Source: Algibacillus agarilyticus
GTDB taxonomy: Bacteria > Pseudomonadota > Gammaproteobacteria > Enterobacterales > Alteromonadaceae
DNA length: 64,000 bases
Reading direction: 5' to 3'
Assembly (NCBI RefSeq): GCF_003286125.1
Contig: NZ_QMED01000002.1
Span: forward strand, 212,634-276,633
Position 1 is the first letter of the stretch. Each line of letters opens with the position of its first letter. The notes under the pieces are model-generated. The model saw only the letters and a program-made list of their open reading frames with translations. It was not told where the DNA came from and made no database searches. This document shows, in pieces, positions 11,032 through 56,429 of this stretch. The translations under genes were made by a program, and so were the position numbers.

Positions 11032-11044
11032 ATTACCAACCCAA

Positions 11045-23070: not shown

Positions 23071-23248
23071 TATAGTCTTCTCACTCAAGTTTTATGGTTC
23101 ATTGTCAGCGCTTACTCGCCCCAATCACATAGTAGAGCATATGCTCATGGCGTCTCGAAGCTTGACGGCTTTGCTTACATGGATGTAAGTACTTCGGTTT
23201 CGTCTGGAACGAGAAACCTGCCCCTAAAACCCGATCGCTTTGACTATA
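23071..23248 (+). repeat. Copy 1 of a modular repeat element with TATAGTC...GACTATA termini (178 bp)
   Basis: Long near-identical matches to 36485-36613 (same orientation) and 56204-56429 (reverse complement). Confidence 0.75.
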
Positions 23249-23352
23249 ATAGAGCATTTCGAGCAGCTAGCGGATGGTAATAATGCGGCATTAGAAAAAC
23301 TCGCTAAGTTTAAAAATTAGCGAGCTTTTAATGCACTTCAAACGTGATGCGT

Positions 23353-23883
23353 TTAACGGCTTAATTGTTCGACTAAAGCATGTAATTGCGCATTAATATC
23401 GGCATTGGTTACCGCGTGTGTTTGTGCATCAACATTATCATAATAGCTCGGCACCGATAACTCGCCTTTCAACACGCCTCCAAAATAGGGTAATGACGTG
23501 GTTGCCGTTTTTAATACATTAACCGCACCACCCGGCCCCGGTGATGTCGCTAACATTATCACGGGCTTGTTTTGAAAAAAGTTGCGCTCGTGACGCGAAG
23601 TCCAATCGAATAAGTTTTTATAAGCCGCGGTATAAGTGCCGTTGTGCTCTGCAAACGAAATAACAATCGCGTCAGCTTCACCTAGTGTGTTAAAAAAATC
23701 GACAGCTTGAGCTGGAATGCCCGATTCAGTTTCGCGATCACTGCTATAAATAGGCATTTCGTAATCATTTAAATCAAGCACATTAACTTGTGCATTGGGT
23801 ACTAAATTAGCCGTGTAACGCGCTAATTGTTTATTGATAGACTGTTTACTGTTACTTGCGGCAAAAGCGACAATTTTCATCAT
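23353..23883 (-). CDS. NAD(P)H-dependent FMN reductase / flavodoxin-like oxidoreductase
   Basis: MKIVAFAASNSKQSINKQL N-terminus and the GTYTAAYKN pattern of NADPH-dependent FMN reductases; divergent from a LysR gene. Confidence 0.75.
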   Translation of the reverse strand: MMKIVAFAASNSKQSINKQLARYTANLVPNAQVNVLDLNDYEMPIYSSDRETESGIPAQAVDFFNTLGEADAIVISFAEHNGTYTAAYKNLFDWTSRHERNFFQNKPVIMLATSPGPGGAVNVLKTATTSLPYFGGVLKGELSVPSYYDNVDAQTHAVTNADINAQLHALVEQLSR

Positions 23884-24016
23884 GATTATTCCTAAATGTC
23901 AGTATTTAACTTGATGAACTCACTATAAATTAAAAACGGTTAAGCATTAATAGCTCATTTGTGTAATGATTGTTTCCATATGAAGCATAATAAACAAACA
24001 TCGTTAGGTTTTAAAA

Positions 24017-24934
24017 ATGCGCTTAAATACCCAATTATTTGAAGGCATGATCATTTTTGTTGAAGTGGTTAACGGTGGCAGTTTTACTAAAGCCGCAGAT
24101 AACACTCAGCATTCAACGTCTTACATCAGTAAAGAAATCGCCAAACTAGAAGCTCGTTTAGGTTTGCGTTTATTAAATCGCACCACTCGATCATTAAGCT
24201 TAACCGCCGAAGGTGAATTATATTTTCAGCAATGCCAACAAATTATTTATGATGCAGAACAAGCTGAACGCTTGATTTCGGGCGCACAACAAAACCCAAA
24301 AGGAAAATTGCGTATTAGCTGCCCAGTGAGTTTTGGCTTATCGCATTTGCAGCCTGTTATAGCGCAGTTTTTAGCTCAATACCCTGATATTACGTTAGAT
24401 CTCGATTTAGACGACCGCAAAGTCGATATTATCGCCGAAGGATTTGATTTAGTGATCAGGGGCACTGAATTACTTAACGATTCAAGTTTAATCAGTCGGC
24501 AATTTTTAAACTCTCGCGTATTAACGGTTGCAACACCTGACTACATTAAACGCCACGGAATGCCGCAAAAACCGGAAGATTTAGTAAACCACACCGTACT
24601 CAGTTATCGTTATTTAAAATCACCTAATATTTGGAACTTCATTGATAAAGCAGGTAACGAGCAGCTAATCGAACTGAAAAGTCGTGTTATTACTAATAGT
24701 CCTCAAATGCAACTATCGTTATGCTTAGCTTCGCAAGGTATTATTCGTATGCCTGACTTTAATTTAGGCCAACACCTAGAAACCGGTGAACTCGTTGAAA
24801 TATTTAGTGACTTACCGTATCGGCAGGTCAATATGTATTTGGTTTACCCAAGCCGCAAACATATGTCGTCTAAGGTCAGGTGCTTTATTGATTTTGCCTT
24901 AGCTTATTTTTCTGATGATTCTTTGGCTCATTAA
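24017..24934 (+). CDS. LysR-family transcriptional regulator
   Basis: N-terminal HTH (FVEVVNGGSFTKAADNTQHSTSYISKEIAKLE) and a LysR substrate-binding domain; 305 aa. Confidence 0.9.
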   Translation: MRLNTQLFEGMIIFVEVVNGGSFTKAADNTQHSTSYISKEIAKLEARLGLRLLNRTTRSLSLTAEGELYFQQCQQIIYDAEQAERLISGAQQNPKGKLRISCPVSFGLSHLQPVIAQFLAQYPDITLDLDLDDRKVDIIAEGFDLVIRGTELLNDSSLISRQFLNSRVLTVATPDYIKRHGMPQKPEDLVNHTVLSYRYLKSPNIWNFIDKAGNEQLIELKSRVITNSPQMQLSLCLASQGIIRMPDFNLGQHLETGELVEIFSDLPYRQVNMYLVYPSRKHMSSKVRCFIDFALAYFSDDSLAH

Positions 24935-25015
24935 GTACCGCCGTCAATCTAACAAAAACCTGAAAAAGCGCTAAACACACGTTAAAATACCGGAATTAGA
25001 TAAAAAGAGATAAAT

Positions 25016-25357
25016 ATGATGACTGAATTAAAAATAACCGACTTAGTGGTTGGTGAAGGTAAAGAAGCAGTAAAAGGCGCATTGATCACAACACATTATC
25101 GCGGCCAGTTGCAAGATGGCACGCAATTCGATTCTTCATATGATCGAGGTAAACCGTTTCAATGTGTGATTGGCACAGGCCGGGTGATTAAAGGCTGGGA
25201 TCAAGGTATTGTTGGCATGAAAGTGGGCGGTAAACGTAAATTAGAAGTGCCATCTGAACTTGCTTATGGTGAGCGTGCGATGGGTAATGCTATTCCGGCT
25301 AATTCTGATTTGACCTTCGAAATTGAATTATTAGAAGTGTTAACTCGCGACGAGTAA
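25016..25357 (+). CDS. FKBP-type peptidyl-prolyl cis-trans isomerase
   Basis: HYRGQLQDGTQFDSSYDRGKPF ... GWDQGIVGMKVGGKRKL..P..AYG is the FKBP signature. Confidence 0.85.
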   Translation: MMTELKITDLVVGEGKEAVKGALITTHYRGQLQDGTQFDSSYDRGKPFQCVIGTGRVIKGWDQGIVGMKVGGKRKLEVPSELAYGERAMGNAIPANSDLTFEIELLEVLTRDE

Positions 25358-25424
25358 TAAGCATGTTTGATGCTTTGTTTAACAACGCATCAAACATTAG
25401 ATAAATGCCATTAAAAAGCAAAAA

Positions 25425-25727
25425 CTAGCCTAAGTGCTTTAACTTAACAAAGTCAGGCGCTGCCATGGTGGGTACAAACTCGGTGATAGCATAATCAGCA
25501 AGTTCCGCTTGATAAAATGGATCTTGCTGAATAATACTTTCAACTTCTTGCCTATTCACTGCATTTACCAAAATAATCCCGCCCGTTCGAGGCGCTTTTC
25601 GGCCCGACACAATAAACTTTCCTTGTGCGTAATATTTTTCAAGGTAAGCAATATGATCGCTGATATGCTGATCAACTTCGCTTAAATCTACGTTATACGT
25701 TAACGATACAATAAACATTTTAGACAC
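25425..25727 (-). CDS. YciI-like (Dabb-fold) protein
   Basis: 100 aa; MFIVSLTY...YLEKYYAQGKFIVSGR pattern of the YciI family. Confidence 0.7.
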   Translation of the reverse strand: MSKMFIVSLTYNVDLSEVDQHISDHIAYLEKYYAQGKFIVSGRKAPRTGGIILVNAVNRQEVESIIQQDPFYQAELADYAITEFVPTMAAPDFVKLKHLG

Positions 25728-25743
25728 CTCTTGCGTTAAATAT

Positions 25744-25769
25744 AAAAAACGAGCCGCAGCTCGCTTTTT
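25744..25769. terminator. Bidirectional rho-independent terminator downstream of the giant ATPase gene
   Basis: AAAAAACGAGC-CGCA-GCTCGCTTTTT. Confidence 0.6.
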
Positions 25770-25822
25770 ATCTGTTGCTCACACTTTGATCACGCTTCGA
25801 TCAGCATAAGCTTAAAACGGCG

Positions 25823-28800
25823 TTAATCTTTAGCGCCATTTGTACCTGCCCAAGCTCGACCTAAAGCACGCATGGCCTTGCCAATGTCATTAATCGGATC
25901 AATCAATTGTTGTGATTGGCTTTGTGTTAAGCCTTGCTGAATATCACCTAATGTTTGCGCAACTAAAGTGAGTTGGTTCGCCATTTGTTGGCTCGGATCA
26001 CTCTCGTCACCCATGGCTTGTTTACGCTTGTATTGACTACAAATATGCTGCCAACGTTCGTTTTGCTCTTCGTTTAATGCACCGCGTAATTGCGCCAATT
26101 TAAGCAAGTTTTCTTCTGCACCAGAGGTTAAGGTTTGCGCTTCACCAACATAATGATCACCGATTAACCGCATGAGCTCGGCTTTATCCATAACCGATGA
26201 TACTTTTTCGGCCATTTTATTCATGTTGCGGTACGAGCCTTGTAATTTAAAAGGTGGCTCGGTGCGATAATCTTCCGCGGTGGCAGCTGAAGCAATGTAT
26301 TGCAGATTCACTTTTAAGATCACTTTTTGGATCTCAAATAAATGCTGCAACACTTGTATTATTTCGTTACGTTCGGCTGCGCTGTAGTCATACGAAAAAT
26401 CAGTGCTAGCCACTTCGCCGCCGTTGGCAAGCTCAACAAAACGATATAAATCTTGCATATCACGTAAAGCTAACGGGGCAAGAACAGGGTTCGACGTTAA
26501 ACTGTTTTCGATATAGCTTAATGCAAATTGCTCTTCTTTACCGCCTAATACGTCACCTAAATTATAAATATCGGCACGGTTAGCCAACATATCCGGCACT
26601 TTAAACACATCGCCCGATTCGGTATAAGGGTTACCCGACATCACCACGCAAAACTTTTTACCGCGCATGTCATAGGTTTTCGTTTTGCCTTGCCATACAC
26701 CTTCTATTCGACGCGTGCCATCACACAAGGCGATAAATTTTTGTAAAAACTCCGGATGCGTATGCTGTATATCATCTAAATACAACATCACATTACTACC
26801 CATTTCAAAACCTAAATTGATTTTTTCAAGTTCTTGCTGCGCGGTTGCATTGGGTGCTTGCTGCGGATCAAGCGATGTAACGTCGTGACCTAAAGACGGG
26901 CAGTTTATTTTCATAAACACTAAGCCGAGTCGATTAGCCACGTATTCCATTAAGGTGGTTTTACCGTAACCTGGGGGTGAGATTAATAACAATAACCCCA
27001 TTAAGTCGGTACGTTTATCATCACCTACTGTGCCCATTTGCTTAGCTAAATTGTCACCAATAATTTGTAAATAAACCTCGTTTATTAATCGGTTACGAAC
27101 AAATGAACTGAGCGGATTCGCTTTAAATGATTCAAGTTGTAGCTGACTACGGTAATCGTGCATTAATTGATTACGCAAAGCATGGTAGCGTTTAAACGCC
27201 GGCACACTGGTGTTATTAAATGTTGCGAGGCGCGTGTTAAATTCGTCCAGCGACAGCGCTAACGAGCCTTCTTTAATGCGTGAATGGTCGCTCAGTAAAC
27301 CGCTAATTTGCGTATCTAACTGCACCGTTGCCACACTGCGCGGTAAATCTTCACATAACAATAAGGTGGCCGCTTCGGTAATGTAATGACTAGCTTGCTG
27401 GTAAATCGTATTGTCTTCGTGTGTTTGCTTAAGTTTAAACTCAATAAAGGCGTCTAACCATGATGTGCATAAACCCCACTGTTCAGCTAAGCCTAATAGT
27501 GTTTGACCGGGTTGATAATGCGCTGTATCACTTAAGTGGGTAAAACGTGCGATCGCATCTTTGTAATCATTAAGATGACCAATGCTGTCTAAATAATCGA
27601 GTAAATCTTGTGCCAATTGCTGGGCTAATTGGCTATTAACAAATTGTAACTCGGGTGCTGCTAGCACCAAACTTAAATAATCTGCCGCGTTGGCGATTAA
27701 ATTCGAATTAAAAGGTAAATCAGCATCCGTTACAAACTGTTGTAACGCTTGTGTTAATTCGGCCAGTAACTCGGTAAAACCTTTTCGGCTATTCAGTGCG
27801 CTCGCTAATAAATGCGCACTGCGGGCATGACGTTGCCACAAGGCTATTTTTTGCTTAGCAAGTGGTGAGTTTTGCCAAAACAAACTGGCTATTGAACGAG
27901 CAGCCGCAGAATAACGTAACAAACCGGCTTGCTGATGAATAGGCAGCAAGGCTTGCAAAATTAAACTTGCGTCTACATCGTGAATACCTTTTTCGTATCC
28001 TTCTTGATAACGCGGTGTCATGTATTTGCGAATAGCGGTTAATAAATAATCAGGTGTTTCAATGCTTTCGTATAACGCGGTTAAACTTAAACCTTCGGTT
28101 TGGTTTTCAGCATGTTGTAATACGCTATAGGCTAAATATTCACTTCTGGCGACTGCGCTATTTTCAGAGACTAAATTTTGCTGCCAATAAGGCGATAAGG
28201 TCGACAGCTCTTCATGCTCTATTCTTTCAAAGTAATCGGTTCCGGTAAGGTGTTTATACATGCCATCGTCGCGTGGCAATAGCGTTAAATCTAACCCTTG
28301 AGTGTTAACACTAAATTTGTGTTTACCCAATTTGATAATGGCACCGCCATCTTCAAAAATATCTTGTTTGTCACGCAAACTACGAATAGCTTGTTCTTTA
28401 GCAGCCTTTAACTGAGCATCAATATCATCTGCTTTTATAGGATCTGCTAAGTCTCGTAATTGCTGCGCTAAATCAGCTAATTTAAGCACCATCGCATCGG
28501 AGGCAAAATAAGTATTGAGTTGGTCAACATCGCTAAAGCTGGTTGCCCGACGTTCAACGCCAGAAATAATTCGCGCGGCGGCACTGGCTAAATTTTGCGC
28601 TCGACGTTGTTGCTCTTCAACTAAGCTTTGCTTACGGTTTTCGAATGCATCTTGTAACTCTTCGCGCTTGGCTAAAATATCCGATAAAAATTCGTCATAT
28701 TCACTGAATTTAGATTCAAGCTCTTCAAGTTGAATTAATAATCGAGATAGCTGTTCATCCGCTTTTTCAGGAGAATCGGCAATCGCTAACGCACTGGTAA

Positions 28801-30904
28801 TGCTTTGCGAGAATAATCTAAACTGTGCAGCAAACTCAGCGACCGCTTCGCCTGAACCAAGCGATTTTTGTTTTTGTCGGCCTTGGGCTTTTACTTGATT
28901 AAGCTTGGCGTATATTTCAGATATATCATCTAATAATTGAGTACGTACGGTCGCATCTTCAACTTTTAGACCATTAAGCACTTCTGTTAATAAATCAAGG
29001 CCGATTGATAGGCTGTCTAATTCTTCATTGAGCGGTGTTAATTCAACAACTAATTCAACGTCATCAATTTGTTGTTTTAACGTGTTTATTTGCTCATGGT
29101 AAGGCGATAACGCGGTATCACTCGCTAAAAAAGTCACCGTTGCTTGGCTAACTTGCTCAAAGGTTTCGGCGGCTTCTTCATCTAATTCTGTTAAACGCGC
29201 TAAATCAATGTAACGTTGCGCTTTTAAACTAATTAAATGACCACGCTGCTTGCGTAAACGACCCAAGCAATCAACAAATTCACGAGGTAACTGCCAATCA
29301 GGTATGCGCACCGACTGCATTATTTTTTTCTGGTCGGCTTCGGCTTCGGCTAACACTTTTTCAGCTTGGTGACGAATTTGCTCAACTTTAATAAATTCAT
29401 CAATCACTAAATCCGCATTGCTGCTGATCATTTTGACCGTTTCGCCAATAGCTGCAACATCACCCTCTGCTAACCAATAAAACGCATCAAAGAGTGTTTT
29501 GCTTTGGCTAATCAAATCTTCGTATAAATTACGACTTGGCTTAGGGTCAAAAATCATGCGATATAAACTGTTAAGTTCAGAGATGCCACGCACTAATTCT
29601 CGGTTACCAATACGACTGTAAAAGGTATCTTGTGTGGGTTGCTTAGCTGAAAACTCTTGACTGAAATAAGGCGTTTGCCACACCTGCATCGGATGCACGC
29701 GAGTCGGCTCTTCTTCGGCACTAAAAACCAGTGCCTGACCATCTTCATATAAACAATAGCCGTGGCCGTAAATCGGATTTTGTAAACCTTTGCGAATGAG
29801 GTTATACGAGAATAAACCAACAAGCCCTTCTTCGGGCTCATAAAAAACAAACAGAACATCTTCACCATTAGGTGAACGAATCGCACGTTTAAAAACTAAA
29901 CCTTCAATTTGATCGGGAAACGATTTGGTTTCGCCATTTTGCAAATAGTAACCGCCAGGAAAAATAATACCGTGGTCTTCGGGTAATGAAATGCACGCTG
30001 AGCCAATTGCATCAATGCGATCAACTTGGTTATTGCGGGTATTAAATACAAAATACCGATGCTGTTTTTCACGGTATGGCTGTATTTTAAGTAAAACAAG
30101 GCTGCCGACTTCAGCAAATTGAATATCGGCATCGGCTAAGCTTTGATTTTTATCATCGACGGGTTCGCTATAAATCCCCTCGCCTTCTTGGGTATTATTT
30201 TCAACCTTAATGGTTAAATCACCATTAATGGTTTCGACAAAGACTTTATCGAGCACGCTAACATGCGGATACTGACCCGAAACATGATCTTCGCGCGATA
30301 CACTTTGCCATTCAAAATCGTGGGTATTGGCTTTTTTTAAAATGCGTTCGCCACGATTGTCGATATACGTTGCGCTACCATCTTTATTGATTTGCCATTG
30401 AAAAACACGGGTATCAGTAATTTGGCGACCAATTTGAAAAATAGCAAACAGGCGTTCATTTTGAACCTGCAGTTGGATCAGTTTTGAATTTTTGTAATAT
30501 ACATAAAGCTCATTAAAATCTTTTTTAAAGACGGGGTCATCTAAAAAAGTCCCCGCTTGCGCGACTTCGGTTATTTCAAAACTCGAATTGTCATTCGATA
30601 AGGTATATAAACTGAATACATCACTGACTTGAGTTTCTTTTTTTAAGCCAATAAATACGTTGTAACCAAAGAGTAAAACATCGCCAACGCGGACGATATC
30701 GCGCGCAACACAGTTGTTTTCAGTGCGAGCACGCACGCGGCTCACAACTTCAAGCGGCGCTTGGCCAAATTCATCAATTCGAGCTTGGTTAAGCGCTTCA
30801 ACTTGTTGTTTTAATTGAGTGGCTTGTTCATTTAAGCGTGCGCATATTACTTCGTATGCACCGCCTTGTGTTACAGCATTATCAAGCGAGTCGTGTTCCG
30901 ACAT
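25823..30904 (-). CDS. Giant (1693 aa) protein: N-terminal globular region, central coiled coil, C-terminal MoxR/AAA_5-type AAA+ ATPase domain; last gene of the NfeD-flotillin operon
   Basis: P-loop LLISPPGYGKTTL, Walker B VMLYLDDIQH, sensor-1-like VVMSGNPYTES; heptad-rich segments at about aa 600-850; single uninterrupted ORF. Confidence 0.8.
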   Translation of the reverse strand: MSEHDSLDNAVTQGGAYEVICARLNEQATQLKQQVEALNQARIDEFGQAPLEVVSRVRARTENNCVARDIVRVGDVLLFGYNVFIGLKKETQVSDVFSLYTLSNDNSSFEITEVAQAGTFLDDPVFKKDFNELYVYYKNSKLIQLQVQNERLFAIFQIGRQITDTRVFQWQINKDGSATYIDNRGERILKKANTHDFEWQSVSREDHVSGQYPHVSVLDKVFVETINGDLTIKVENNTQEGEGIYSEPVDDKNQSLADADIQFAEVGSLVLLKIQPYREKQHRYFVFNTRNNQVDRIDAIGSACISLPEDHGIIFPGGYYLQNGETKSFPDQIEGLVFKRAIRSPNGEDVLFVFYEPEEGLVGLFSYNLIRKGLQNPIYGHGYCLYEDGQALVFSAEEEPTRVHPMQVWQTPYFSQEFSAKQPTQDTFYSRIGNRELVRGISELNSLYRMIFDPKPSRNLYEDLISQSKTLFDAFYWLAEGDVAAIGETVKMISSNADLVIDEFIKVEQIRHQAEKVLAEAEADQKKIMQSVRIPDWQLPREFVDCLGRLRKQRGHLISLKAQRYIDLARLTELDEEAAETFEQVSQATVTFLASDTALSPYHEQINTLKQQIDDVELVVELTPLNEELDSLSIGLDLLTEVLNGLKVEDATVRTQLLDDISEIYAKLNQVKAQGRQKQKSLGSGEAVAEFAAQFRLFSQSITSALAIADSPEKADEQLSRLLIQLEELESKFSEYDEFLSDILAKREELQDAFENRKQSLVEEQQRRAQNLASAAARIISGVERRATSFSDVDQLNTYFASDAMVLKLADLAQQLRDLADPIKADDIDAQLKAAKEQAIRSLRDKQDIFEDGGAIIKLGKHKFSVNTQGLDLTLLPRDDGMYKHLTGTDYFERIEHEELSTLSPYWQQNLVSENSAVARSEYLAYSVLQHAENQTEGLSLTALYESIETPDYLLTAIRKYMTPRYQEGYEKGIHDVDASLILQALLPIHQQAGLLRYSAAARSIASLFWQNSPLAKQKIALWQRHARSAHLLASALNSRKGFTELLAELTQALQQFVTDADLPFNSNLIANAADYLSLVLAAPELQFVNSQLAQQLAQDLLDYLDSIGHLNDYKDAIARFTHLSDTAHYQPGQTLLGLAEQWGLCTSWLDAFIEFKLKQTHEDNTIYQQASHYITEAATLLLCEDLPRSVATVQLDTQISGLLSDHSRIKEGSLALSLDEFNTRLATFNNTSVPAFKRYHALRNQLMHDYRSQLQLESFKANPLSSFVRNRLINEVYLQIIGDNLAKQMGTVGDDKRTDLMGLLLLISPPGYGKTTLMEYVANRLGLVFMKINCPSLGHDVTSLDPQQAPNATAQQELEKINLGFEMGSNVMLYLDDIQHTHPEFLQKFIALCDGTRRIEGVWQGKTKTYDMRGKKFCVVMSGNPYTESGDVFKVPDMLANRADIYNLGDVLGGKEEQFALSYIENSLTSNPVLAPLALRDMQDLYRFVELANGGEVASTDFSYDYSAAERNEIIQVLQHLFEIQKVILKVNLQYIASAATAEDYRTEPPFKLQGSYRNMNKMAEKVSSVMDKAELMRLIGDHYVGEAQTLTSGAEENLLKLAQLRGALNEEQNERWQHICSQYKRKQAMGDESDPSQQMANQLTLVAQTLGDIQQGLTQSQSQQLIDPINDIGKAMRALGRAWAGTNGAKD

Positions 30905-30998
30905 GGTTTTATTATACTCCCTGGCGAAGATATGGCAGGTAAACAGCAGGTATACGCTTTAAGTGGGCATACCTGTGTTTAATTGAAAGAGACCGGTG

Positions 30999-33002: not shown

Positions 33003-33013
33003 TTCTGCTCCCA

Positions 33014-33655: not shown

Positions 33656-33825
33656 ACTACATCCGATTAACGCCAATGTAGCTTATTTTTATCGCGCTGT
33701 TAACTAGAATATGACATCAATTGTATGAAATTAAGTTTTTGCCATCTTTTGGTATATTAATTAAATCGTTTGCCAGTCATAATAAAATATACATGATTGA
33801 AATTAGTTAATTAAATGGAATTTAC

Positions 33826-36484: not shown

Positions 36485-36613
36485 TATAGTCTTCTCGCTC
36501 AGGTTTTATGGTTCATTGTCAGCGCTTACTCGCCCCAATCACATAGTAGAGCATATGCTCATGGCGTCTCGAAGCTTGACGGCTTCCCCTAAAACCCGAT
36601 CGCTTTGACTATA
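36485..36613 (+). repeat. Copy 2 of the modular repeat element (129 bp, lacks the 49-bp hairpin module)
   Basis: Near-identical to the copy 1 ends; lies in the PDZ/GH16 divergent promoter region. Confidence 0.75.
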
Positions 36614-41350: not shown

Positions 41351-44320
41351 ATGGCAACTCAAGCACAAAGCCCCGCTTTTTTAACCCGGTTTTTCACTTT
41401 TACAGGAAAATCATTACGTATACTGGTTTATATTTTACTCGGTACATTACTAGCAATTTGGTTATTTTCACCTTTAGCCATCCGCCTTGGCTTAAACCAT
41501 GTGTTAGATGAGCAAAATTTATCAATCGATGATAACAGCATCGTGCGCATTAACCCCTTTCTCGCGCGACTCAGTATTGAAGATTTAGTGTTACATGAAA
41601 ACCAAGAAAAGGTATTGAAAACAGACGCATTAATTGTCGATATCGCTTGGTTACCTTTATTGCAACATGAAGTGAATATCGAAGCGTTTACCATCGCAGG
41701 CTTTAGCATTAATAGTCAGTTTAATAAAAACGGTCAATTACAAAAAATTGCCGGTTTTATTTTACCAAAGGCAACTGAAGAAACAGACACAACTAGCGCA
41801 GAGCAACCCGTGATACCTTGGCGTATCACCGTAAATGAAAGTCTATTTAGCGACAGTATATTTAACCTTTATTTACCCCATAAAAAGCAAGCGATTGCCC
41901 TCACCCATTTAAATTTACGTCAGGTTGAATTAAGTCAACAAATTCAAGCATTGAATTTAGCACTGCAAGTAAAAGTAGATGGAACAACATTAGATCTAAC
42001 AAGCGATATTAAACTGGCTCAAGGTTTAGGTTTAATCGATAGCCAAATAACGTTAAGCCAAATAGATTTAGCCACATTAAAAAGCTGGTTACCGGATCAA
42101 GCTGCATTAAAACCTTTAAAAGGGATTGTTGATATAAAAGTGGCTAGCAAGATAAACATAAGCACCAACAATGTAGATATTGTCAAAAACAAAATCGATA
42201 TTAAACTGGCCGATATTGAATACACTCACGAACAAGGCGATATTTTATTAAGAGACTTTGCATTAAGCCTAAGCGACATTAATGTAAATTTATATCAGGG
42301 TAAACCGACAGCGGTCACGGCCAATATACAACAGCATTTAAGTGATTTAGTGATAGATCAATTACCAGCCCCGAGTCCCAAAATAACATTAGCCGCTTTT
42401 GATTTAACCATAGCAGACCTGAACCTCGAGTTTGAAAACGGCTTACTAAGTGAAGCCAATTTGCCGCTAATAACTAAATTGAGTGATTTATCGACCGTCG
42501 GTGGACCCACTCCCGATATGGTTAGCACTTTAACTCAATTTGATTTCAGCACACCTAAACTTAGTTTACTGTTTGAAGAACAACGTCCACACGCTATTAG
42601 CATGCAAAGCAAGTTAGACTTACATGAATTTAAAGCCGAAAATGCCAATGGCATATTGGCGCATTTTTCGGGTATCTCGTTAGAAGAGCTAGCCGTATTG
42701 GGTGCAATTGAGCAACCGGAAATCAATGTTTCAAATTTGCATATCAAACCTTTTGTTTTATCACAAGTTCACACTATCGCCCCCAGTAAAACTAAAGCAA
42801 TTCAAGCAAGCTCAAATGATGATGAACGGGCAATTGTCGCCGATAGTGTAAAAACAAATGTAACCGTTAATGAAACGGTAACGAATGAAACAGTAACGAA
42901 TGAAACAGTACCGAATCAAACAGTAACGAACCAAACAACCGCTAAGAATAAAACAGAAAAAGAAGAGCAAAATACCCCCACGTCGGCACCCGCTATAAAC
43001 CAAGAGACCTTAGATGTAACACAAACAAGTGCTGAATCCACCGTCGAATTACCGCCATTGTTAAGCAGTAACGGCATCACTATTTCGCATTTCAATATTG
43101 ATCAACAAGATATCGAGATTGGTGATATAGCATTAGATCATATTGAGGCTAATGCCTTTATTAATGCTAAGAAAAAGCTCAGTACCCAAGTTAGCCTAGA
43201 AAGCCAAAATGATACAGACGAGCCAGAATTAAATGAAGAAGCCTCAGCCTCGACAAGCGCGGCAGAAACAGAAACCAGCGCACAAAAACCGGCAATGCGC
43301 ATCAGTTTAAATCGCTTTGAACTGATTAATAACGCCGTTATTAATGTACGTGATGAAAGTATTAACCCCGCTTATGAACGAGGTTTCGAATTCACCACGC
43401 TTAGCTTAGGTCGTATATCAACCACTGAGCCTGAACGTGAAACACCTTATTTAATAAAAGGTAAAAGTGATCGTTATGCCGTCATCGATTTTAACGGCTT
43501 TATAAAACCACTGGCAAAAATCACCCATTACACCGCTCAAGGCCATATAAAAGAGCTTGATTTACCCGGATTGTCGCCGTATTTAAAAGGTCCGTTAAAG
43601 CATGAAATAAAAACCGGCCACTTTGATTTAGGTTTAAAAGTAAAAATAATCAACGAACAAATTGATGGTGATGCCGACATATTATTACGAGGTTTGGAGT
43701 TATCTGCGGCTAATAATATCGAAGCATCAACAATTAAAGACACAACAGCGATGCCATTGAATATGGCAGTAGGCGTGCTTAAAGATAGCGATAACAACCT
43801 TGAACTAAACATTCCATTAAAAGGCAGCCTGAGTGATCCATCATTTGATGGTTTGTCTGGCATTGTGGTTTTACTCAGTAAAAAAGCCGCGATGAAAGCC
43901 GCTACATCGCTATTGATGGATACGTTTGTTCCTTACGCTAATATAGTAAGTGTCGCGATGATGGCAGGTGAATACGCCTTAAAAGTTCGCTTTAATGATT
44001 TAGAGTTTGCTCCAAAACAAAGCGCACTAACCGCCGCACAAATAACCTTTGCAAATGACTTTATTGCGTTAATGAAAGATAAAGAAGACACTCAAATAAA
44101 CCTCTGTGCTATCGCAACGCCAGCCGATATTGATTTACCTGCCAAAAGTGTTTTAACATCATCACAAATAGCACAGCTCAATAAATTATCACAAGCTCGG
44201 CAACATGCATTTAAAGATTATGTATCGCAAGGTGGCGTGGCATCCGCACGCATTTTATTATGCGCCCCAACATTAGATAACAGCAAAGACGCTAAACCTC
44301 GTTTAAGCTTTAGCAGCTAA
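41351..44320 (+). CDS. Large AsmA-like/DUF748-type envelope protein (989 aa) with an internal TVTNE tandem repeat
   Basis: N-terminal TM anchor followed by a long beta-rich repetitive sequence; resemblance to the AsmA/TamB-like family is from memory only. Confidence 0.5.
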   Translation: MATQAQSPAFLTRFFTFTGKSLRILVYILLGTLLAIWLFSPLAIRLGLNHVLDEQNLSIDDNSIVRINPFLARLSIEDLVLHENQEKVLKTDALIVDIAWLPLLQHEVNIEAFTIAGFSINSQFNKNGQLQKIAGFILPKATEETDTTSAEQPVIPWRITVNESLFSDSIFNLYLPHKKQAIALTHLNLRQVELSQQIQALNLALQVKVDGTTLDLTSDIKLAQGLGLIDSQITLSQIDLATLKSWLPDQAALKPLKGIVDIKVASKINISTNNVDIVKNKIDIKLADIEYTHEQGDILLRDFALSLSDINVNLYQGKPTAVTANIQQHLSDLVIDQLPAPSPKITLAAFDLTIADLNLEFENGLLSEANLPLITKLSDLSTVGGPTPDMVSTLTQFDFSTPKLSLLFEEQRPHAISMQSKLDLHEFKAENANGILAHFSGISLEELAVLGAIEQPEINVSNLHIKPFVLSQVHTIAPSKTKAIQASSNDDERAIVADSVKTNVTVNETVTNETVTNETVPNQTVTNQTTAKNKTEKEEQNTPTSAPAINQETLDVTQTSAESTVELPPLLSSNGITISHFNIDQQDIEIGDIALDHIEANAFINAKKKLSTQVSLESQNDTDEPELNEEASASTSAAETETSAQKPAMRISLNRFELINNAVINVRDESINPAYERGFEFTTLSLGRISTTEPERETPYLIKGKSDRYAVIDFNGFIKPLAKITHYTAQGHIKELDLPGLSPYLKGPLKHEIKTGHFDLGLKVKIINEQIDGDADILLRGLELSAANNIEASTIKDTTAMPLNMAVGVLKDSDNNLELNIPLKGSLSDPSFDGLSGIVVLLSKKAAMKAATSLLMDTFVPYANIVSVAMMAGEYALKVRFNDLEFAPKQSALTAAQITFANDFIALMKDKEDTQINLCAIATPADIDLPAKSVLTSSQIAQLNKLSQARQHAFKDYVSQGGVASARILLCAPTLDNSKDAKPRLSFSS
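42861..42936 (+). repeat. 15-bp in-frame tandem repeat (about 5 units) encoding VTNET repeats
   Basis: GTAACGAATGAAACA units read directly. Confidence 0.8.
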
Positions 44321-44354
44321 CCCTTGCGGTCTAATTAAGTCGTTAATTTAAAAA

Positions 44355-46101: not shown

Positions 46102-46274
46102 TAAAATTCCTTAAAAGATAATTACGATTGGCTGAACAGGCGCGTATTTTAGAGTTTGCTGAAAAAACAAACAGTATTAAAATTATCAACTTGTATGTTT
46201 AAAACTATCATTTGAAACGCTACACTCTATTTTTAGTTATGAATATTTAACCCCGTTAATACAAGGTTCACCTG

Positions 46275-47144: not shown

Positions 47145-47210
47145 ATAAGTTTATGCTCAAAATAGCCTGTAGATAACAGCTGAGCGAAGTTGCGCTTTAT
47201 CGCAAAGCGC

Positions 47211-47669: not shown

Positions 47670-47682
47670 TATAAATCTCTGC

Positions 47683-48423: not shown

Positions 48424-48712
48424 GTAAACATCTTCCTACTATTTATAATATTCAGCTATAAGCCTATAAAGAACACATTATGCGAGTAAAACTCGATACG
48501 ACATCCATTATCTAACACGATGGTTGGCGGTTAAACGGCCAAAATACTACCAGATAGCAGAGTAATGCCCAACGCTTAAATGCACCTTTAGCTGACTTTT
48601 TTTTTTAAACTTCAACAAGTCGATCACCTTTGGTTAGAGCTGATCAAAAGTGAAAAAAACAAGCGCTAAAATAGAGAGGCGTTATTACAGAAAATAAGAG
48701 GGGTTAGCTAAT

Positions 48713-49897: not shown

Positions 49898-49905
49898 GAT
49901 GCAGA

Positions 49906-51450
49906 CTAAACCAATTTCATAATTGATTTACCCGTCATTTCTGCAGGTTGTTCCATACCCATTAAATAAAGCATTGTCGGCGCAACATCACTTAATTTAC
50001 CTTCTTTTGTCGCAACTTCAGCATTTCGACCATAATAAATAAACGGTACCGGTTCGCTGGTATGTGCAGTATGGTTTTGACCGGTATTAGCATCAGCCAT
50101 TTGCTCTGCGTTACCGTGATCAGCTGTAATTAAACATTCGCCGCCCACCTCATCTAACGCTTCAACCACACGACCAATGGCAACATCAACGGCTTCACAT
50201 GCTTTAACCGCTGCTTCAAATACACCGGTGTGCCCTACCATATCACCATTTGGATAATTACAAATAATGGCATCAAACTCTTGGCTACGAATAGCCGCAC
50301 ATAATTTATCGGTTAATAGTACCGAGTTCATTTCAGGCTGTAAGTCATAGGTTGCAACTTGTGGCGATGGGATCAATTCACGAGATTCACCATCATATAA
50401 GTCTTCACGACCACCACTAAAGAAAAACGTCACGTGAGCATACTTTTCAGTTTCGGAGATACGTAATTGCGTTTTACCTTTTTGAGCCAACCAATCAGGG
50501 AATGTATTAGCTAAATCTTCTGGAGGGTAAGCTGAAGGCGCATCAATATCGGCCGCATATTGTGTCATCATAACAAATTCACTTAACGCCGGTACTTTTT
50601 GACGCTCAAAGCCATCAAAATCAGCATCAGTAAAAGCACGTGTAATTTCACGCGCTCTATCCGCACGAAAGTTAACAAAAATAAGCGTGTCGCCATCATT
50701 AATCGTCGCGGCTTTACCATCTTCACCTGTAATCGTGGTTGCAGGCATAAATTCATCATTTTTATCATCTGCATAAGCGGCTTCTAATGCTTCTAATGCC
50801 GTCGTGGTTGTATTTAAACATTTACCTTCGGTCATTAATTCATAAGATGCTTGTACACGATCCCAACGGTTATCACGATCCATTGCATAATAACGACCAA
50901 TTACACTCGCAATACGGCCATTGCCGGTTTCAGCGAATTTTGCATCAATTTTTTTAATTGGGTTTTCGGCACTGCGTGGTGGTGTATCGCGACCATCTAA
51001 AAAGGCATGCACATAAACTTCTTTAGCGCCTCTAGCCGTTGCTAACTCAATAGCCGCAACCAAATGACTATCATGGCTATGCACACCACCGGGTGATAAT
51101 AAGCCCATTAAATGCACCGCTTTATTTTGGCTAACTGCTTTATCAATCGCGCTAACTAAATTGGGGTTTTCGAAAAACGTACCATCTTGGATATCTTTTG
51201 TAATACGGGTGAAATCTTGATAAACAATGCGACCCGCACCTAAATTGACATGGCCAACTTCACTATTACCCATTTGGCCATCGGGTAAACCAACGTCCAT
51301 ACCTGAACCAGAAATAAGCGTGCTTGGCTTAGTTGCCCAAAGATTATCTAAAACGGGCGTATTCGCATGATGTATCGCATTAGATTCGGTTGATTCTGAA
51401 TAGCCCCAGCCATCCATAATAATTAGTACTAGTGGTTTTTTAGCCGCCAT
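49906..51450 (-). CDS. gpmI: 2,3-bisphosphoglycerate-independent phosphoglycerate mutase
   Basis: Full-length iPGM pattern ([29 protein letters not shown]). Confidence 0.95.
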
Positions 51451-51991
51451 AATTTTTTCCTCAGTGTGAGCTTTAAAAGACTCTAATCGTGACGTATTAA
51501 AGATATTGCGCTAGAAACGATTACAGTATTTTTGAATTGGATATTATTTTTTCATCAATTCTACATGATTTATCAGCAAACTACTCATAAGCAAGATTTA
51601 TGTTATATAACGTCTTGATGAATACTCAAGCCGATGTTTAGCTTAAACAGCGTAATTTAACTCAACTCTGGTTAAGGTCGATAATAAAACATTAGTTATT
51701 ACTTGTTTTTCAAATACTTAAGAATATAAGCAACATAAATAAATGGCCATTTAACGTTTTAGTGATAAATTTTCGACTCGGCTTAGACTCGTTTTGGTGT
51801 TAATAGCAGGCGTGTTGCAAGTAAACTTAACGCCAGCTTAAGTAAAAAGCACCATTAAAAATAAATTTTTTAGCCAAAGTTAAGGTTAATGGTTAAACCG
51901 TGAACAACAAAAAACCCAATTACGCATTATTCGCATGTTTAAAGAGTCCATGTATAATGCGTTCCAAAATGCTTATTAGGAACTTATTTTA

Positions 51992-52420
51992 GTGGAACAA
52001 TATATCGAATTTATCGGCAACAACCCTATTTTATCTGGTATTTGGCTAGTTTTATTTTTTGCTATTACTTATCATTTCTTTCAAGCCAAACTTTCGGCTT
52101 TTAAGCGCGTTAATAATAGTCAATTAACCCAATTAGTTAATAAAGAAGACGCGATTGTCGTCGATGTTCGCGCCAAAGACGATTATAAAAAAGGTCATAT
52201 CGCGGGCGCTAAAAATCTTTTATTATCGCAAATTGACCAAGGTGAAATTGGGACGCTTGAAAAACAAAAAGATACCCCCATAATTTTAGTTTGCACAGCC
52301 GGGCTTTCTGCCTCTAAAGGCGCTAACAAGCTCGTTAAAGAAGGCTTTAACCAAGTTTATTTGCTCGAAGGCGGAATGAATAGCTGGACAGGTGCGAATT
52401 TACCCTTAGTAAAATCATAA
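51992..52420 (+). CDS. yibN: Rhodanese-domain protein YibN-like
   Basis: N-terminal TM plus a rhodanese domain with active-site Cys (LVCTAG); yibN-grxC-secB-gpsA synteny. Confidence 0.8.
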   Translation: MEQYIEFIGNNPILSGIWLVLFFAITYHFFQAKLSAFKRVNNSQLTQLVNKEDAIVVDVRAKDDYKKGHIAGAKNLLLSQIDQGEIGTLEKQKDTPIILVCTAGLSASKGANKLVKEGFNQVYLLEGGMNSWTGANLPLVKS

Positions 52421-52431
52421 AAGAGAAATAC

Positions 52432-52689
52432 ATGGCCAACATTATTGTTTACACCAAAGCGTATTGCCCATTTTGTACTCATGCTAAGTCACTTTTAAAC
52501 AGTAAAGGTGCTGAGTTTACCGAAATCAATATTGGTGGCGATGCGGCACTACGCGATGAAATGATCGCTAAAAGTGGTGGTGGATACACAGTGCCACAAA
52601 TTTTCATTAACGATATGCATATAGGTGGATGTGATGACTTGGTGGCATTTAATGCTCAAGGTAAATTAGATCCCTTACTACAAGACTAA
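52432..52689 (+). CDS. grxC: Glutaredoxin 3
   Basis: CPFC active site, 85 aa, GG..DL motif. Confidence 0.9.
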   Translation: MANIIVYTKAYCPFCTHAKSLLNSKGAEFTEINIGGDAALRDEMIAKSGGGYTVPQIFINDMHIGGCDDLVAFNAQGKLDPLLQD

Positions 52690-52707
52690 CAACAAGGTAT
52701 AAAAACA

Positions 52708-53217
52708 ATGACAGATCAAGCTCCAGCTGCAGGCGAAGCAACAGAAAACACAGCACCACAATTTAATATTTCTCGCATTTATGTACGTGACATCTCGTTT
52801 GAATCACCTAATGCACCGGGGATTTTTACTAACGAATGGACACCTGAAGTTAATTTAGATTTAGATACTAAAAGCAATAAATTAGCTGAAGACACTTATG
52901 AAGTTATTTTATCAGTAACCGTGACAGCAAAAGTAGGTGATAAAACTGCATTTTTAGCTGAAGTTCAACAAGCAGGTATTTTCAACGCCGTTAACTTTAG
53001 TGAGCAAGCATTAGCACATTGTTTAGGTTCTAATTGTCCAAATATTTTATTCCCTTATGCACGCGAAGCCATTGCTAACTTAGTTAATCGCGGTACTTTC
53101 CCTGTATTAAATTTAGCGCCAGTAAACTTTGATGCAATGTTTGCACAATTTATTCAACAAAAAGCAGCTGAAATTCAGCAAGCTGAAGCTGAAAAACCAG
53201 AGCAATTGGATTCTTAA
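52708..53217 (+). CDS. secB: Protein-export chaperone SecB
   Basis: [17 protein letters not shown]...; acidic C-terminus; synteny. Confidence 0.9.
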
Positions 53218-54225
53218 ATGCAAAATTCAGAGTTTGATGTTGTTGTATTAGGCGCCGGTTCATATGGGACTGCGCTCGCTTTATGCATGGCCCGAACAGG
53301 TAAAAATGTTTTAATGTGGGGACGCAACAAAGAGCATATTGCGGCGATCACAACGTCAAATGAAAATGCGCGTTATTTACCTGGCACCCAATTTCCAGAT
53401 AATTTATCGGTCACCGACGATTTAAATAAAGCGGTAAAACAAAGCCGCAATATTTTAGTCGTTGTGCCGAGCCACGCATTTGCTGAAACATTAGATTTAA
53501 TAAAACCAGACTTACGCGACGATGTTCGTTTAGCTTGGGCAACAAAAGGTTTAGAACCTGATACCGGTCGTTTATTACAAGATGTAGCGCGTGAAAAATT
53601 AGGCCCAGATGTCGCCTTAGCGGTTATTTCAGGTCCGACTTTTGCAAAAGAAATGGCCGTAGGTATGCCAACTGCCATTTCGGTTTCGTCGACAGATAAC
53701 GAATTCACTCAAGTCATTTCAAATTTACTCCATTGCGAAAAGCGCTTTAGAGTTTATAAAAACAATGACTTTATTGGTGTTCAAATGGGCGGCGCCGTTA
53801 AAAATGTGATCGCCATTGGTGCTGGTATGGCCGATGGTATCGGTTTTGGCGCTAACGCACGTACTGCATTAATTACACGTGGTTTAACTGAGCTTTGTCG
53901 TTTAGGGGCTGCGCTTGGCGCTGAACAATCAACCTTTATGGGCATGGCCGGTTTAGGCGACTTAGTATTAACCTGCACCGATAACCAATCACGTAATCGC
54001 CGCTTTGGTTTAGCGCTCGGTCAAGGTAAAACCGTTGACGAAGCCATGACATCAATCGGCCAAGTGGTTGAAGGGTATAGAAACACAAAAGAAGTCCATG
54101 TGTTAGCCCAACGCTATGATGTTGAAATGCCGATTACAGAACAAATATTTAACGTTCTGTATAAAGGAAAAGCCCCACAAGAAGCCGCATTAGCACTCCT
54201 CAGCCGAGAGCCTAAATTTGAATAA
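53218..54225 (+). CDS. gpsA: Glycerol-3-phosphate dehydrogenase [NAD(P)+]
   Basis: [12 protein letters not shown] Rossmann motif and full-length GpsA pattern. Confidence 0.95.
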
Positions 54226-54246
54226 TTGCGTTTAAGCATTCATATC

Positions 54247-54277
54247 AAAAAAGGCGTTTTTATTAACGCCTTTTTTA
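54247..54277. terminator. Rho-independent terminator after gpsA
   Basis: AAAAAAGGCGTT-TTTATT-AACGCCTTTTTT. Confidence 0.65.
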
Positions 54278-54370
54278 TTGCCCAATTTAAAATATTTGGT
54301 GTGAATAACGGCTGAAGCTAAACATCAACGACACATTAAGTTAAACTCTGGGTAATTGTATTAATCAGAG

Positions 54371-55201
54371 TTGCACATGCTAGGCCATATCAAAAAATTA
54401 ACCGCCCAACTGGATCCAAACACGCATCAAATCACTTATCAATTGCCGTTAGACGAGCAAAAATTAGAATTAAACCCGTATATCGGTAAAACACTCTCGA
54501 TGCACTTTACGGGACAAATTAGCTGCAGTAACTGTGGAAAAAAAACGAAAAAGAGCTTCTCGCAAGGTTTTTGCTTTCCTTGTATGCGTAAAATCGCGTC
54601 TTGCGATATGTGCATAATGAAACCTGAAACCTGTCATTACGATCAAGGCACGTGCCGTGAACCTGAGTGGGGCGAAGCCAATTGCATGATCCCACATTAT
54701 GTCTATTTATCGAATACGTCAGGCTTAAAAGTCGGTATCACTCGGCATACACAAGTACCAACCCGCTGGATAGACCAAGGCGCAACACAAGCCTTATTAT
54801 TGTATCAAGTCAATACACGCCAATTATCAGGTTTAATTGAAGTCGCATTAGGCGAGTTTATTGCCGACAAAACCAATTGGCGCGCGATGCTTAAAGGCAA
54901 TAATGATAACCTCGATTTAAAAGCCGTTGCCGCAGAGCTTAAACCCAAAATACAAGAAAGAATGAACGAATTAACCGCACTTTACGGCTCAGAAGCCATA
55001 ACAGAATTAGAGGGTGATATTTGGCATTTAGACTTTCCGGTTAGCGAGTTTCCAACCAAAGTCACCTCGTTTAATTTTGATAAAACGCCGGATGTCTCAG
55101 GCATACTTAAAGGCATTAAAGGTCAATATTTAATATTTGATACTGGGGTGATCAATATGCGTAAATTTTCATCGTATCAAATTGAAGTATCTCCTGTTTA
55201 A
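54371..55201 (+). CDS. Conserved hypothetical Cys-rich (zinc-ribbon) protein, DUF2797-like
   Basis: CSNCGKK...CFPC...CDMC...C Cys cluster; family assignment from memory; TTG start per the ORF track. Confidence 0.45.
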   Translation: MHMLGHIKKLTAQLDPNTHQITYQLPLDEQKLELNPYIGKTLSMHFTGQISCSNCGKKTKKSFSQGFCFPCMRKIASCDMCIMKPETCHYDQGTCREPEWGEANCMIPHYVYLSNTSGLKVGITRHTQVPTRWIDQGATQALLLYQVNTRQLSGLIEVALGEFIADKTNWRAMLKGNNDNLDLKAVAAELKPKIQERMNELTALYGSEAITELEGDIWHLDFPVSEFPTKVTSFNFDKTPDVSGILKGIKGQYLIFDTGVINMRKFSSYQIEVSPV

Positions 55202-55248
55202 TCTGTTTAATCTGTTTAATCTGTTTAATCTGTTTAATCTGTTTAATG
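55195..55248. repeat. 9-bp tandem repeat TGTTTAATC x6 forming the entire spacer between two genes
   Basis: Read directly; the first unit contains the upstream stop codon and the last unit contains the downstream ATG. Confidence 0.85.
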
Positions 55249-56145
55249 AGCGAATCGACCATGTTAACCGTCACGGCACTTTATATTTACCCGGTTAAAT
55301 CGCTGGGTGGCATAAAACTTAATTCAGCAAAACTAACCGTTCAAGGTTTAGCCTATGATCGACGGTGGATGGTGATTGATCATCAAGGTTGTTTTGTTAC
55401 CCAAAGAACACTCGCGCAGATGGCATTAATTGAGGTTGATATAAATGACGAATATCTCATTTTATCGGCCAGTGGATATGAAGATTTTAAAGTACCACTC
55501 ACTAAATCATTCTCACCTACCGACAACGTGAATACCGAAGTTTGGCGTGACAAGGTTATAGGGTTCAACGAGGGCTTTGAAGCCGAAGAATGGTTAACGC
55601 GAGTTCTTGGCTTATATCACGGTCATCCTCTTCGCCTTGTACGTTTTGCTGATAATCAGATTCGACAAGTCGATAAAAATTATTTACCTAAACCCAATTC
55701 AACTCATAACTTAAATACACAAGCCAGCCATACTGCCTATGCTGATGGTTTTCCTTTTTTATTAACCAATACCATGTCGCTTACCGCGCTTAACCACCAA
55801 TTAACACAGCAAGGTAAACAAGCGGTTAGCATGTCGCGCTTTCGCAGTAATATTGTGGTTAAGGGATTGGAGGCTTGGCAAGAAAATACAGTTACAACAC
55901 TCGTATCAGAGTCAGCAGATGAACAACGATGGCAATTTGAATTGTGCAAACCATGCGAGCGCTGCCCAATAACTAAAATAGACCCGTTCACCGCACAAGT
56001 CCCTGATAAGTTAGAACCTTTAAAAACATTAGCCGCGATGGATACACACGTACCGTTAACCGGTGCGTACTTTGGCCAGAATGCGGTTTTGTCAGTGGGT
56101 GAAAGTGCCGTGATTTCGGTGGGCGATAAATTTACGTTTAGTTAA
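55246..56145 (+). CDS. MOSC-domain protein (YcbX-like)
   Basis: N-terminal MOSC beta-barrel (LYIYPVKSLGG) and MOSC domain with conserved Cys (CERCPITKID). Confidence 0.8.
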   Translation: MSESTMLTVTALYIYPVKSLGGIKLNSAKLTVQGLAYDRRWMVIDHQGCFVTQRTLAQMALIEVDINDEYLILSASGYEDFKVPLTKSFSPTDNVNTEVWRDKVIGFNEGFEAEEWLTRVLGLYHGHPLRLVRFADNQIRQVDKNYLPKPNSTHNLNTQASHTAYADGFPFLLTNTMSLTALNHQLTQQGKQAVSMSRFRSNIVVKGLEAWQENTVTTLVSESADEQRWQFELCKPCERCPITKIDPFTAQVPDKLEPLKTLAAMDTHVPLTGAYFGQNAVLSVGESAVISVGDKFTFS

Positions 56146-56203
56146 ACGCATTGTGCGTAACAGGATGGGATAAAGAACCATGAAAATGCCGATCAAGCAA
56201 AAA

Positions 56204-56429
56204 TATAGTCAAAGCGATCGGGTTTTAGGGGCAGGTTTCTCGTTCCAGACGAAACCGAAGTACTTACATCCATGATAAGCAAAGCCGTCAAGCTTCGAGA
56301 CCCCATGAGCATATGCTCTATTATGTGATTGGAGCCGCCTAAATGGATTTAGGTGTTAGAACGACGCAGGAGCCAAAGTCGAGAGTAAGCGCTGACAATG
56401 AACCATAAAACCTGAGCGAGAAGACTATA
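56204..56429 (-). repeat. Copy 3 of the modular repeat element (226 bp, inverted orientation, carries an extra about 50-bp hairpin module)
   Basis: Reverse-complement match to copies 1 and 2, including the TATAGTC/GACTATA termini. Confidence 0.75.

Follow-up and report, generated by a model that had tools for sequence, protein, structure and literature searches.

This report concerns a hairpin-rich repeat element that is present three times in the intergenic DNA of a 64,000-nucleotide stretch of the Algibacillus agarilyticus genome (contig NZ_QMED01000002.1, positions 212,634 to 276,633; hereafter the window, with positions counted from its first letter). Copy 1 (23071-23248, plus strand, 178 bp) lies between two tandem genes on the minus strand that encode an SPFH/Band 7 protein (21861-22772) and an FMN reductase (23353-23883). 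Copy 2 (36485-36613, plus strand) is located between divergent genes encoding PDZ and GH16/ricin-B proteins, with the GH16/ricin-B start codon 111 bp downstream and the start of the PDZ gene 316 bp away. Copy 3 (56204-56429, minus strand, 226 bp) separates the convergent genes for a MOSC protein and an ErpA-like (Fe-S_biosyn) protein.

A first-pass annotation, made by reading the letters alone, had placed the copies at these positions and on these strands, had described the divergent promoter at copy 2 and the convergent pair at copy 3, and had seen TATAGTC and GACTATA termini in all three. Reading of the loci, alignment and block counts against shuffled sequence bear this out in full. The three loci align as one shared element, and each of its three long blocks has three matches in the window at up to three mismatches, where none is expected (100 shuffles). 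What they share is a 129-bp core, 96-98% identical between pairs of copies (mean 97.4%).

The copies differ by the presence or absence of discrete blocks, which we call modules. Copy 2 is a bare 129-bp core, as the first-pass annotation had it, and the extra 49-bp block reported for copy 1 is module B (23172-23220, plus strand), so placed that copy 1 is the core plus this module. Copy 3 had been thought to carry a different block of about 50 bp in place of that of copy 1. An extra block of this kind does exist (module A, 47 bp; 56336-56382, minus strand), but copy 3 carries the module B of copy 1 as well (56232-56281, minus strand, 50 bp), and the two blocks are not therefore alternatives. Module A occupies a second internal site, is inverted with respect to module B, has a plus strand that contains CCTAAATGGATTTAGG, and occurs once only in the window. 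The two B modules are closely related: over 71 nt, made up of the 3' 43 nt of the module and the 3' terminal inverted repeat (TIR), copy 3 matches copy 1 at 100% identity, and a single-nucleotide insertion spoils the first hairpin of the copy 3 module (CTTATCATGGATGTAAG).

Ends, core and further copies

The first-pass annotation had proposed a BLASTN search with the core as a means of finding further copies. A blastn search of plasmid records, followed by local blastn, identified nine full copies on a 208-kb plasmid of Saccharobesus litoralis (NZ_CP026605.1). Seven of these consist of the 129-bp core alone. An eighth, of 225 bp, combines the core with modules A and B and is 92.8% identical to copy 3 of the window over 222 nt, and the ninth, at 270 bp, has module A together with a variant of module B and a new module, C. 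The composite of core, A and B is thus present in both genera. Together with the window copies these make up the 12 aligned full copies on which the following description is based.

In all 12 copies similarity ends exactly at TATAGTC...GACTATA, beyond which the flanks are unrelated and do not align. Both ends of every copy are formed by a 24-bp imperfect TIR, TATAGTCnnnnCGnTCrGGTTTTA, in which 18 of the 24 positions match; in copy 1 the 5' repeat (23071-23094, plus strand) reads TATAGTCTTCTCACTCAAGTTTTA, with two substitutions relative to the family, and the 3' repeat (23225-23248, plus strand) reads TAAAACCCGATCGCTTTGACTATA. The inverted termini had been noticed at the outset, although the seven base pairs then recognised fall well short of their true extent. 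In searches allowing up to six mismatches, the TIR pattern is confined to element ends in both the window and the plasmid. In ten of the 12 copies each end carries TA, which is compatible with duplication of a TA target site.

The elements range from 129 to 270 bp and have no coding capacity, the sole open reading frames (ORFs) being read-through artefacts that stop internally. The longer variants (178, 225/226 and 270 bp) consist of the core plus exact 47-50-bp blocks at three internal sites. On either strand the core folds into a single long hairpin (-38 and -43 kcal/mol, z about -3.5 and -3.8), as would be expected of any element with TIRs. Consensus scans found no sigma-70-like promoter or intrinsic terminator common to the copies, and the idea that the terminal TATAGT and TTGACT hexamers might serve as halves of hybrid promoters was rejected, as the flanks of copy 2 contain no partner hexamer. 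A possible IHF site in the core (AATCACATAGTAG compared with WATCAANNNNTTR) has two mismatches.

The core copies do not sort by genus and form no genus-specific clades. Mean core identity is 95.1% between the genera and 95.4% within the plasmid, whilst nucleotide identity between the orthologous genes is 66.7% for MOSC and 80.6% for ErpA. The MOSC protein encoded beside copy 3 is 100% identical to an A. agarilyticus entry, followed among the hits by its S. litoralis homologue at 61%. A more distant relative was found, using a profile of the cores, in Alteromonadaceae bacterium M269 (L002, 9835-9990; E = 3.6e-4), directly upstream of the M269 DUF3686 gene. This sequence is about 55-60% identical to the core, which is best kept at its centre (CCCCAATCACATAGTA...ATGCTCATGGGG), and its termini read TATACTC...GAGTAT, a matched exchange of G and C at both ends. 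Judged by sequence, it is probably a representative of an older, diverged subfamily.

A 22-mer of the 3' TIR was absent among the matches listed from an exact scan of genome_contigs, a collection from which the source genome is itself apparently missing, as the relatives found there of the DUF3686 ATPase encoded in the window reach no more than 67% identity; a 22-mer of the core had no exact match in metagenome_contigs, nor did a degenerate TIR pattern match anything in metagenome_contigs or viral_contigs. In the searchable literature the element sequences are absent, the only hits being primer matches to the 9-mer, and the papers that mention A. agarilyticus or S. litoralis are not about repeats.

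Although the insertion sites, which are unrelated to one another, are mainly intergenic, the element is also found within coding sequence. Querying proteins with the translated element identified two further A. agarilyticus proteins, encoded on other contigs and designated P0121 and P0122, whose C-termini are element-encoded: the sequence YSQSDRVLG(E/A)AVKLRD(A/P)MSICSTM corresponds to a minus-strand frame that enters via the 3' end of the element and runs to an internal stop. P0121 is a VOC/glyoxalase protein whose Pfam domain ends at profile position 86 of 121. Its closest homologues (121-134 amino acids, 69-75% identical) are matched only to about residue 90 and extend some 35-50 residues past the end of the matched stretch. 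The element-encoded end, the short VOC domain and the longer homologues together place the element inside the P0121 gene. With the two copies deduced from these proteins, A. agarilyticus has at least five.

On the plasmid, copies lie near the starts and stops of genes, including one in the ahpC-ahpF spacer and one that precedes a GH97 start by 14 bp. A distance of 66 bp separates copy S7 from the end of a group II intron, the copy being outside the intron itself. The intergenic DNA of this plasmid (L081-L085) is a mosaic of several further repeat families (for example at 83258-83451, 89082-89665 and 107520-107618), with four to ten matches elsewhere for the flanks of each of the copies S3, S4, S5 and S6.

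Double-hairpin modules

A single design underlies modules B and C and, when its opposite strand is read, module A: each starts with TTGC, followed by a first hairpin, a short linker and a second hairpin. Hairpin 1 has a loop containing UGGA and stems that covary between variants (CTTAC/GTAAG, CCTGC/GCAGG, CCTAA/TTAGG and CCTAC/GTAGG). Hairpin 2 has a stem that is wholly different from one variant to the next and a loop that is either GTCTGGAAC or (A)GCAGGA, so that every module loop contains GGA. In module B of copy 1 the hairpins are CTTAC-ATGGAT-GTAAG and GGTTTC-GTCTGGAAC-GAGAAACC; in module A of copy 3, where the strand with the GGA loops is the plus strand of the window, they are CCTAA-ATGGAT-TTAGG and CGAC-GCAGGAGCCAAA-GTCG. 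Hairpin 1 was compared in 12 instances: both partners have changed in three of its six pairs, pairing is kept in 94% of cells and the G-G-A never varies; the covariation score was not reached in any of 500 shuffles. Across all the loci analysed, perfect 5-bp stems around A(T/C)GGAT number 22 where four are expected, most of them in Saccharobesus and Pseudoalteromonas.

These modules are not confined to the element. On the S. litoralis plasmid GTCTGGAAC occurs ten times (1.6 expected), nine of them in a double-hairpin context, most of these outside the element described here, and stand-alone copies are present in Saccharobesus. An A-type stand-alone copy is present on a plasmid of Catenovulum adriaticum, and C-type copies, 92% identical, are found on Pseudoalteromonas chromids. 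Two of the Pseudoalteromonas loci (L088 and L089) are informative in that L089 has an extra module exactly inside a repeat that is uninterrupted in the L088 strain, a pattern of presence and absence like that seen in the 129-bp element. The repeat in question is conserved, about 170 bp long (L089 1200-1400, L088 1200-1340), and has a C-type double-hairpin module at its start; the second module of L089 (48 nt, TTCTTACATGGATGTAAGCC...GCAGGAGCAGTTACCGA) is placed after ...TTTTTACTTA. In L089 an IS4-family transposase gene starts about 95 bp away from the repeat, whose first module has unrelated sequence in place of its 5' end; in L088 the first module starts 24 bp past the stop of an ISAs1-family transposase gene.

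Four comparisons of filled and empty module sites are available, and in each the module is present without target duplication, directly 3' of ...CTT or ...GTT. Blocks are either exactly present or exactly absent, with the core intact, and modules occur in both orientations; within a single element A runs opposite to B and C. Taken together, the sequences show that the modules are a separate, independent family of double-hairpin repeats. Given the exact presence or absence of the blocks and the existence of stand-alone copies, the modularity of the element is best explained by nested insertion of a second small element, with the resulting composites then propagated.

The modules themselves could be REP- or IS200-like single-strand elements, or, going by their sequences, they could be RNA hairpins that present GGA. 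The CsrA/RsmA (RsmE) family of proteins recognises a consensus of approximately WCANGGANGW, with GGA in hairpin loops and two or more sites spaced some tens of nucleotides apart. The ACAUGGAUGU of hairpin 1 fits this consensus, and the hairpin 2 loop holds a second GGA 24 nt further downstream. It is conceivable, although we think it improbable, that the modules are portable two-site GGA-loop cassettes of CsrA/RsmA type that spread without target duplication and in either orientation, mostly 3' of ...YTT, in the manner of HUH/IS200-like elements. Such cassettes could be distributed through Alteromonadales intergenic DNA and even into other mobile elements, where they would seed new sites of post-transcriptional regulation, with the 129-bp element as their vehicle between genera. 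Plasmid modules have mixed orientations with respect to genes, an arrangement that does not speak for a strand-specific role as RNA, and Rfam recognises neither the modules nor anything at the Pseudoalteromonas and Catenovulum loci. CTGGAAC...TGC in hairpin 2 was considered as a sigma-54-like motif and discarded, its GG-GC spacing being two bases too long.

Two-hairpin arrangements with GGA loops were also seen outside the Alteromonadales, in a metagenome-assembled genome of Bacterioplanoides (L016, minus strand, reverse-complement position ~5809; GCCACAGGATGTGGC...ACAGGGACG) and in Pseudomonas sp. PA27 (L059, minus strand, ~8334; CCCACATGGATGTGGGAAATGCCGC...). These may be RNA hairpins of Csr/Rsm type or chance matches.

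Origin of the element

What kind of element is this? The first-pass annotation had favoured a miniature inverted-repeat transposable element (MITE) or a REP/BIME-like family, with a structured small RNA as the alternative. In our view the three loci probably belong to a MITE family, not described before, that Algibacillus and Saccharobesus share. Small size, TIRs, TA ends, unrelated flanks, lack of coding capacity, copy number, truncation of a gene and the existence of size variants all support this. The unrelated flanks, a divergence as large within genera as between them, and the composite of core, A and B that both have in common point further to a non-autonomous transposon that was recently active and has spread horizontally. 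The element would move by cut and paste at TA sites, with a DDE transposase of IS630/Tc1-mariner type supplied in trans, presumably by an autonomous element with matching ends. Its internal blocks would have arrived by nested insertion, after which the composites spread as units, and the family would have moved between Algibacillus and Saccharobesus in the recent past, plausibly via plasmids. Effects on neighbouring genes, such as a read-through hairpin, displaced promoters or truncated genes, would be by-products of insertion.

Several points weigh against a MITE. Two of the 12 copies have changed terminal dinucleotides, and the TA duplication and the exact ends of the element are putative. 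Searches with the flanks of the nine plasmid copies returned no empty site, paralogous or otherwise; the MOSC-ErpA region of S. litoralis was considered as one and rejected, being rearranged and containing an RND pump, a group II intron and IS66. No additional TIR match that might mark an autonomous partner was found in the window or the plasmid at up to six mismatches, and a regular-expression search of the window, the plasmid and 87 other loci found no IS630/Tc1-like DDE motif. The transposases annotated on the S. litoralis plasmid are of the IS110, IS4, ISAs1-like and Y1 types. Finally, the very high identity between genera may also reflect selection on the sequence.

This last point leads to the suggestion that the core is maintained by its host under purifying selection, for example as a cis-acting regulatory or structural DNA site or as a co-transcribed hairpin that affects mRNA stability in the way proposed for ERIC. 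A core identity of 95% between genera in which orthologous genes are only 67-81% identical would fit such selection, as would the retention in the distant M269 relative of the core's centre, which includes a perfect 12-bp palindrome (GAGCATATGCTC). The core also folds better than shuffled sequence on both strands, with the z-scores given above, and copies such as those at ahpC-ahpF and GH97 lie close to the ends of genes. Against this, identity between the genera is the same as that within a single replicon and there are no genus-specific clades, exactly as recent spread predicts. Copies between co-directional genes (n = 7) are divided between three in the sense and four in the antisense orientation, no promoter or terminator is common to them, and one copy destroys a gene (P0121). 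Nor are compensatory changes seen: in the alignment of the 12 cores none of 39 predicted pairs has changed on both sides, and substitutions in the TIR helix break pairs (12 cells). A function for the host thus has no support from covariation or orientation, and we judge it unlikely. Similar observations tell against a family of unannotated small-RNA genes, in which the copies would be independent transcripts with modular stem-loops. The sequence is certainly rich in hairpins, and the GGA motifs of the module loops resemble those of RNAs that titrate CsrA/RsmA. Yet the Rfam scan that had been proposed as a check gave no match at the gathering threshold anywhere in the window, with only chance-level hits around copy 3 at E<=10; the core lacks both covariation and a common promoter or terminator, copies face either way relative to their neighbours and run into coding sequence, and module A is inverted relative to B within one element. 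The small-RNA alternative accordingly lacks support and was rejected as a reading of the core, and we would put it among the most improbable of explanations.

The REP/BIME label was apt in part. It is a reasonable description of the internal modules, as a separate family of small palindromic repeats, and a poor one of the 129-bp core. Were the core of REPIN/BIME type, it would be an inverted pair of REPs that a RAYT (Y1/HUH) transposase moves in single-stranded form, leaving the target unduplicated, and the TA ends would be either part of the element or a preferred target. The ability of the whole element to form one long hairpin would suit such a pathway, as would the lack of a DDE partner in the window, the plasmid and the 87 other loci. 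There is, in addition, a Y1 gene on the S. litoralis plasmid (167548-168642; L084 17548-18642), annotated 'transposase', whose 364 amino acid product has weak matches to Y1/IS200-like and REP-associated tyrosine transposases (Pfam E = 2e-4). Its match to the NCBIfam REP_Tyr_transpos model, at 39.9 bits, is nevertheless well under the cut-off of 80, its flanks contain neither the core nor the hairpin modules, and the gene is absent from the window. The termini of the element have no conserved GTAG or CGTC tag, and the sole GTAG is central (column 62) and is ATAG in half of the copies. A REPIN-like origin of the core therefore seems highly unlikely, and a MITE remains the explanation that we prefer.

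If the element is a MITE, it adds an undescribed family to the little-studied alga-degrading marine bacteria. Two points are unusual, namely its near-identity across genera and its hosting of a widespread double-hairpin repeat. The first would mark recent horizontal exchange, making the family a practical tracer of traffic between plasmids and chromosomes and a possible aid in the search for an active transposase. The second provides, in the nested modules, a clean natural case of one small repeat family inserting in another, and the conserved GGA loops offer a testable lead for a regulatory role. Annotation is affected too: the element encodes the C-termini of at least two A. agarilyticus proteins, one of them the product of a truncated VOC gene.

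Other repeats in the window and known systems of similar design

The window contains other repeats that are separate from the element. The spacer between the ORFs at 10726-11031 and 11301-12776 (both minus strand) has operator-like repeats at 11040-11165, where GGGACTATA(A/T)TCCCATT occurs twice in direct orientation (11046 and 11127) with an inverted GGAATATAGTCC at 11076-11088. TATAGTC motifs at 11047-11134 were considered as ends of the element and rejected, the palindromes being unrelated and the shared heptamer coincidental. At 55185-55256 there are about six tandem copies of a 9-bp unit, CTGTTTAAT, running from the end of the ORF at 54371-55201 into the region of the MOSC start (55246); this could be an array of binding sites or a slippage-prone tract. 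A 15-bp tandem repeat (AATGAAACAGTAACG, about 4-5 copies) at 42869-42943 lies inside the ORF at 41351-44320, and the 989 amino acid protein that this encodes thus contains a short peptide repeat. Between 25823 and 33676 (minus strand) are three tandem ORFs, encoding a 1693 amino acid protein with DUF3686, DUF7902 and AAA ATPase domains followed by proteins of 684 and 220 amino acids with no Pfam match. Relatives of the ATPase are found in 418 stretches across the Gammaproteobacteria, with 52-67% identity among 80 of these loci.

Amongst known repeats, REPs are palindromes of 20-40 bp in which a GTAG or CGTC tag defines superfamilies (PMC3733652). The core differs from these in its length of 129 bp, in its TIRs, in lacking a terminal GTAG or CGTC and in having a central GTAG that is polymorphic. 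The likeness to REPs and BIMEs is limited to the modules, which are short palindromes with covarying stems, intergenic, found in mosaic clusters and inserted without target duplication. Even here the fit is a loose one because the tag is not conserved (GTAGG, GTAAG, GCAGG and TTAGG all occur); moreover, the modules keep their loops and vary their stems, the reverse of typical REPs, and no flanking RAYT gene was found.

The ERIC (or IRU) sequences of enterobacteria are intergenic and about 127 bp long, and form imperfect palindromes that have TA termini and a contiguous TIR of 7 bp (PMC2229807). In size, imperfect palindromy, intergenic placement and TA termini they resemble the Algibacillus element, from which they differ in the shortness of their TIR and in having an unrelated sequence. 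ERICs are conserved across genera far past neutral expectation, and their longer variants have arisen by internal insertions at fixed sites, so that in cross-genus conservation and fixed internal insertion sites, too, the two are alike. ERICs also have orientation-dependent effects on mRNA stability. The RUP element of Streptococcus pneumoniae is a MITE with TA insertion sites and copies similar enough to suggest recent mobility (PMC2229807). Both it and the Algibacillus element would be MITEs, some 100-130 bp long, whose insertion sites have TA and whose copies are highly similar to one another; RUP, however, has a putative partner with matching TIRs, IS630-Spn1, whereas none was found for the Algibacillus element.

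The closest known design is that of the Correia (NEMIS) elements of Neisseria, which have 24-bp TIRs, TA termini and 107- and 155-bp classes distinguished by a 50-bp internal block (PMC2229807). Both elements are non-coding, have TIRs of about 24 bp and TA termini, and begin with TATAG. In both, an internal block of about 50 bp sets the size classes (107/155 bp in Neisseria, 129/178 bp in Algibacillus), and both are mainly intergenic, with occasional fusion to ORFs and a long hairpin if transcribed. The Correia elements, too, are not known to have a parent transposase. The differences lie in the host, a marine member of the Alteromonadaceae in the present case, in the TIR, where beyond the first five nucleotides (TATAG) the Algibacillus sequence (TATAGTCTTCTCGCTCAGG...) does not agree with the Correia TIR, and in the internal blocks, which in Algibacillus are an independent repeat family at three sites, in both orientations and without an established IHF site. 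By sequence the element is not a member of the Correia, RUP or ERIC families, and its likeness to Correia is one of design.

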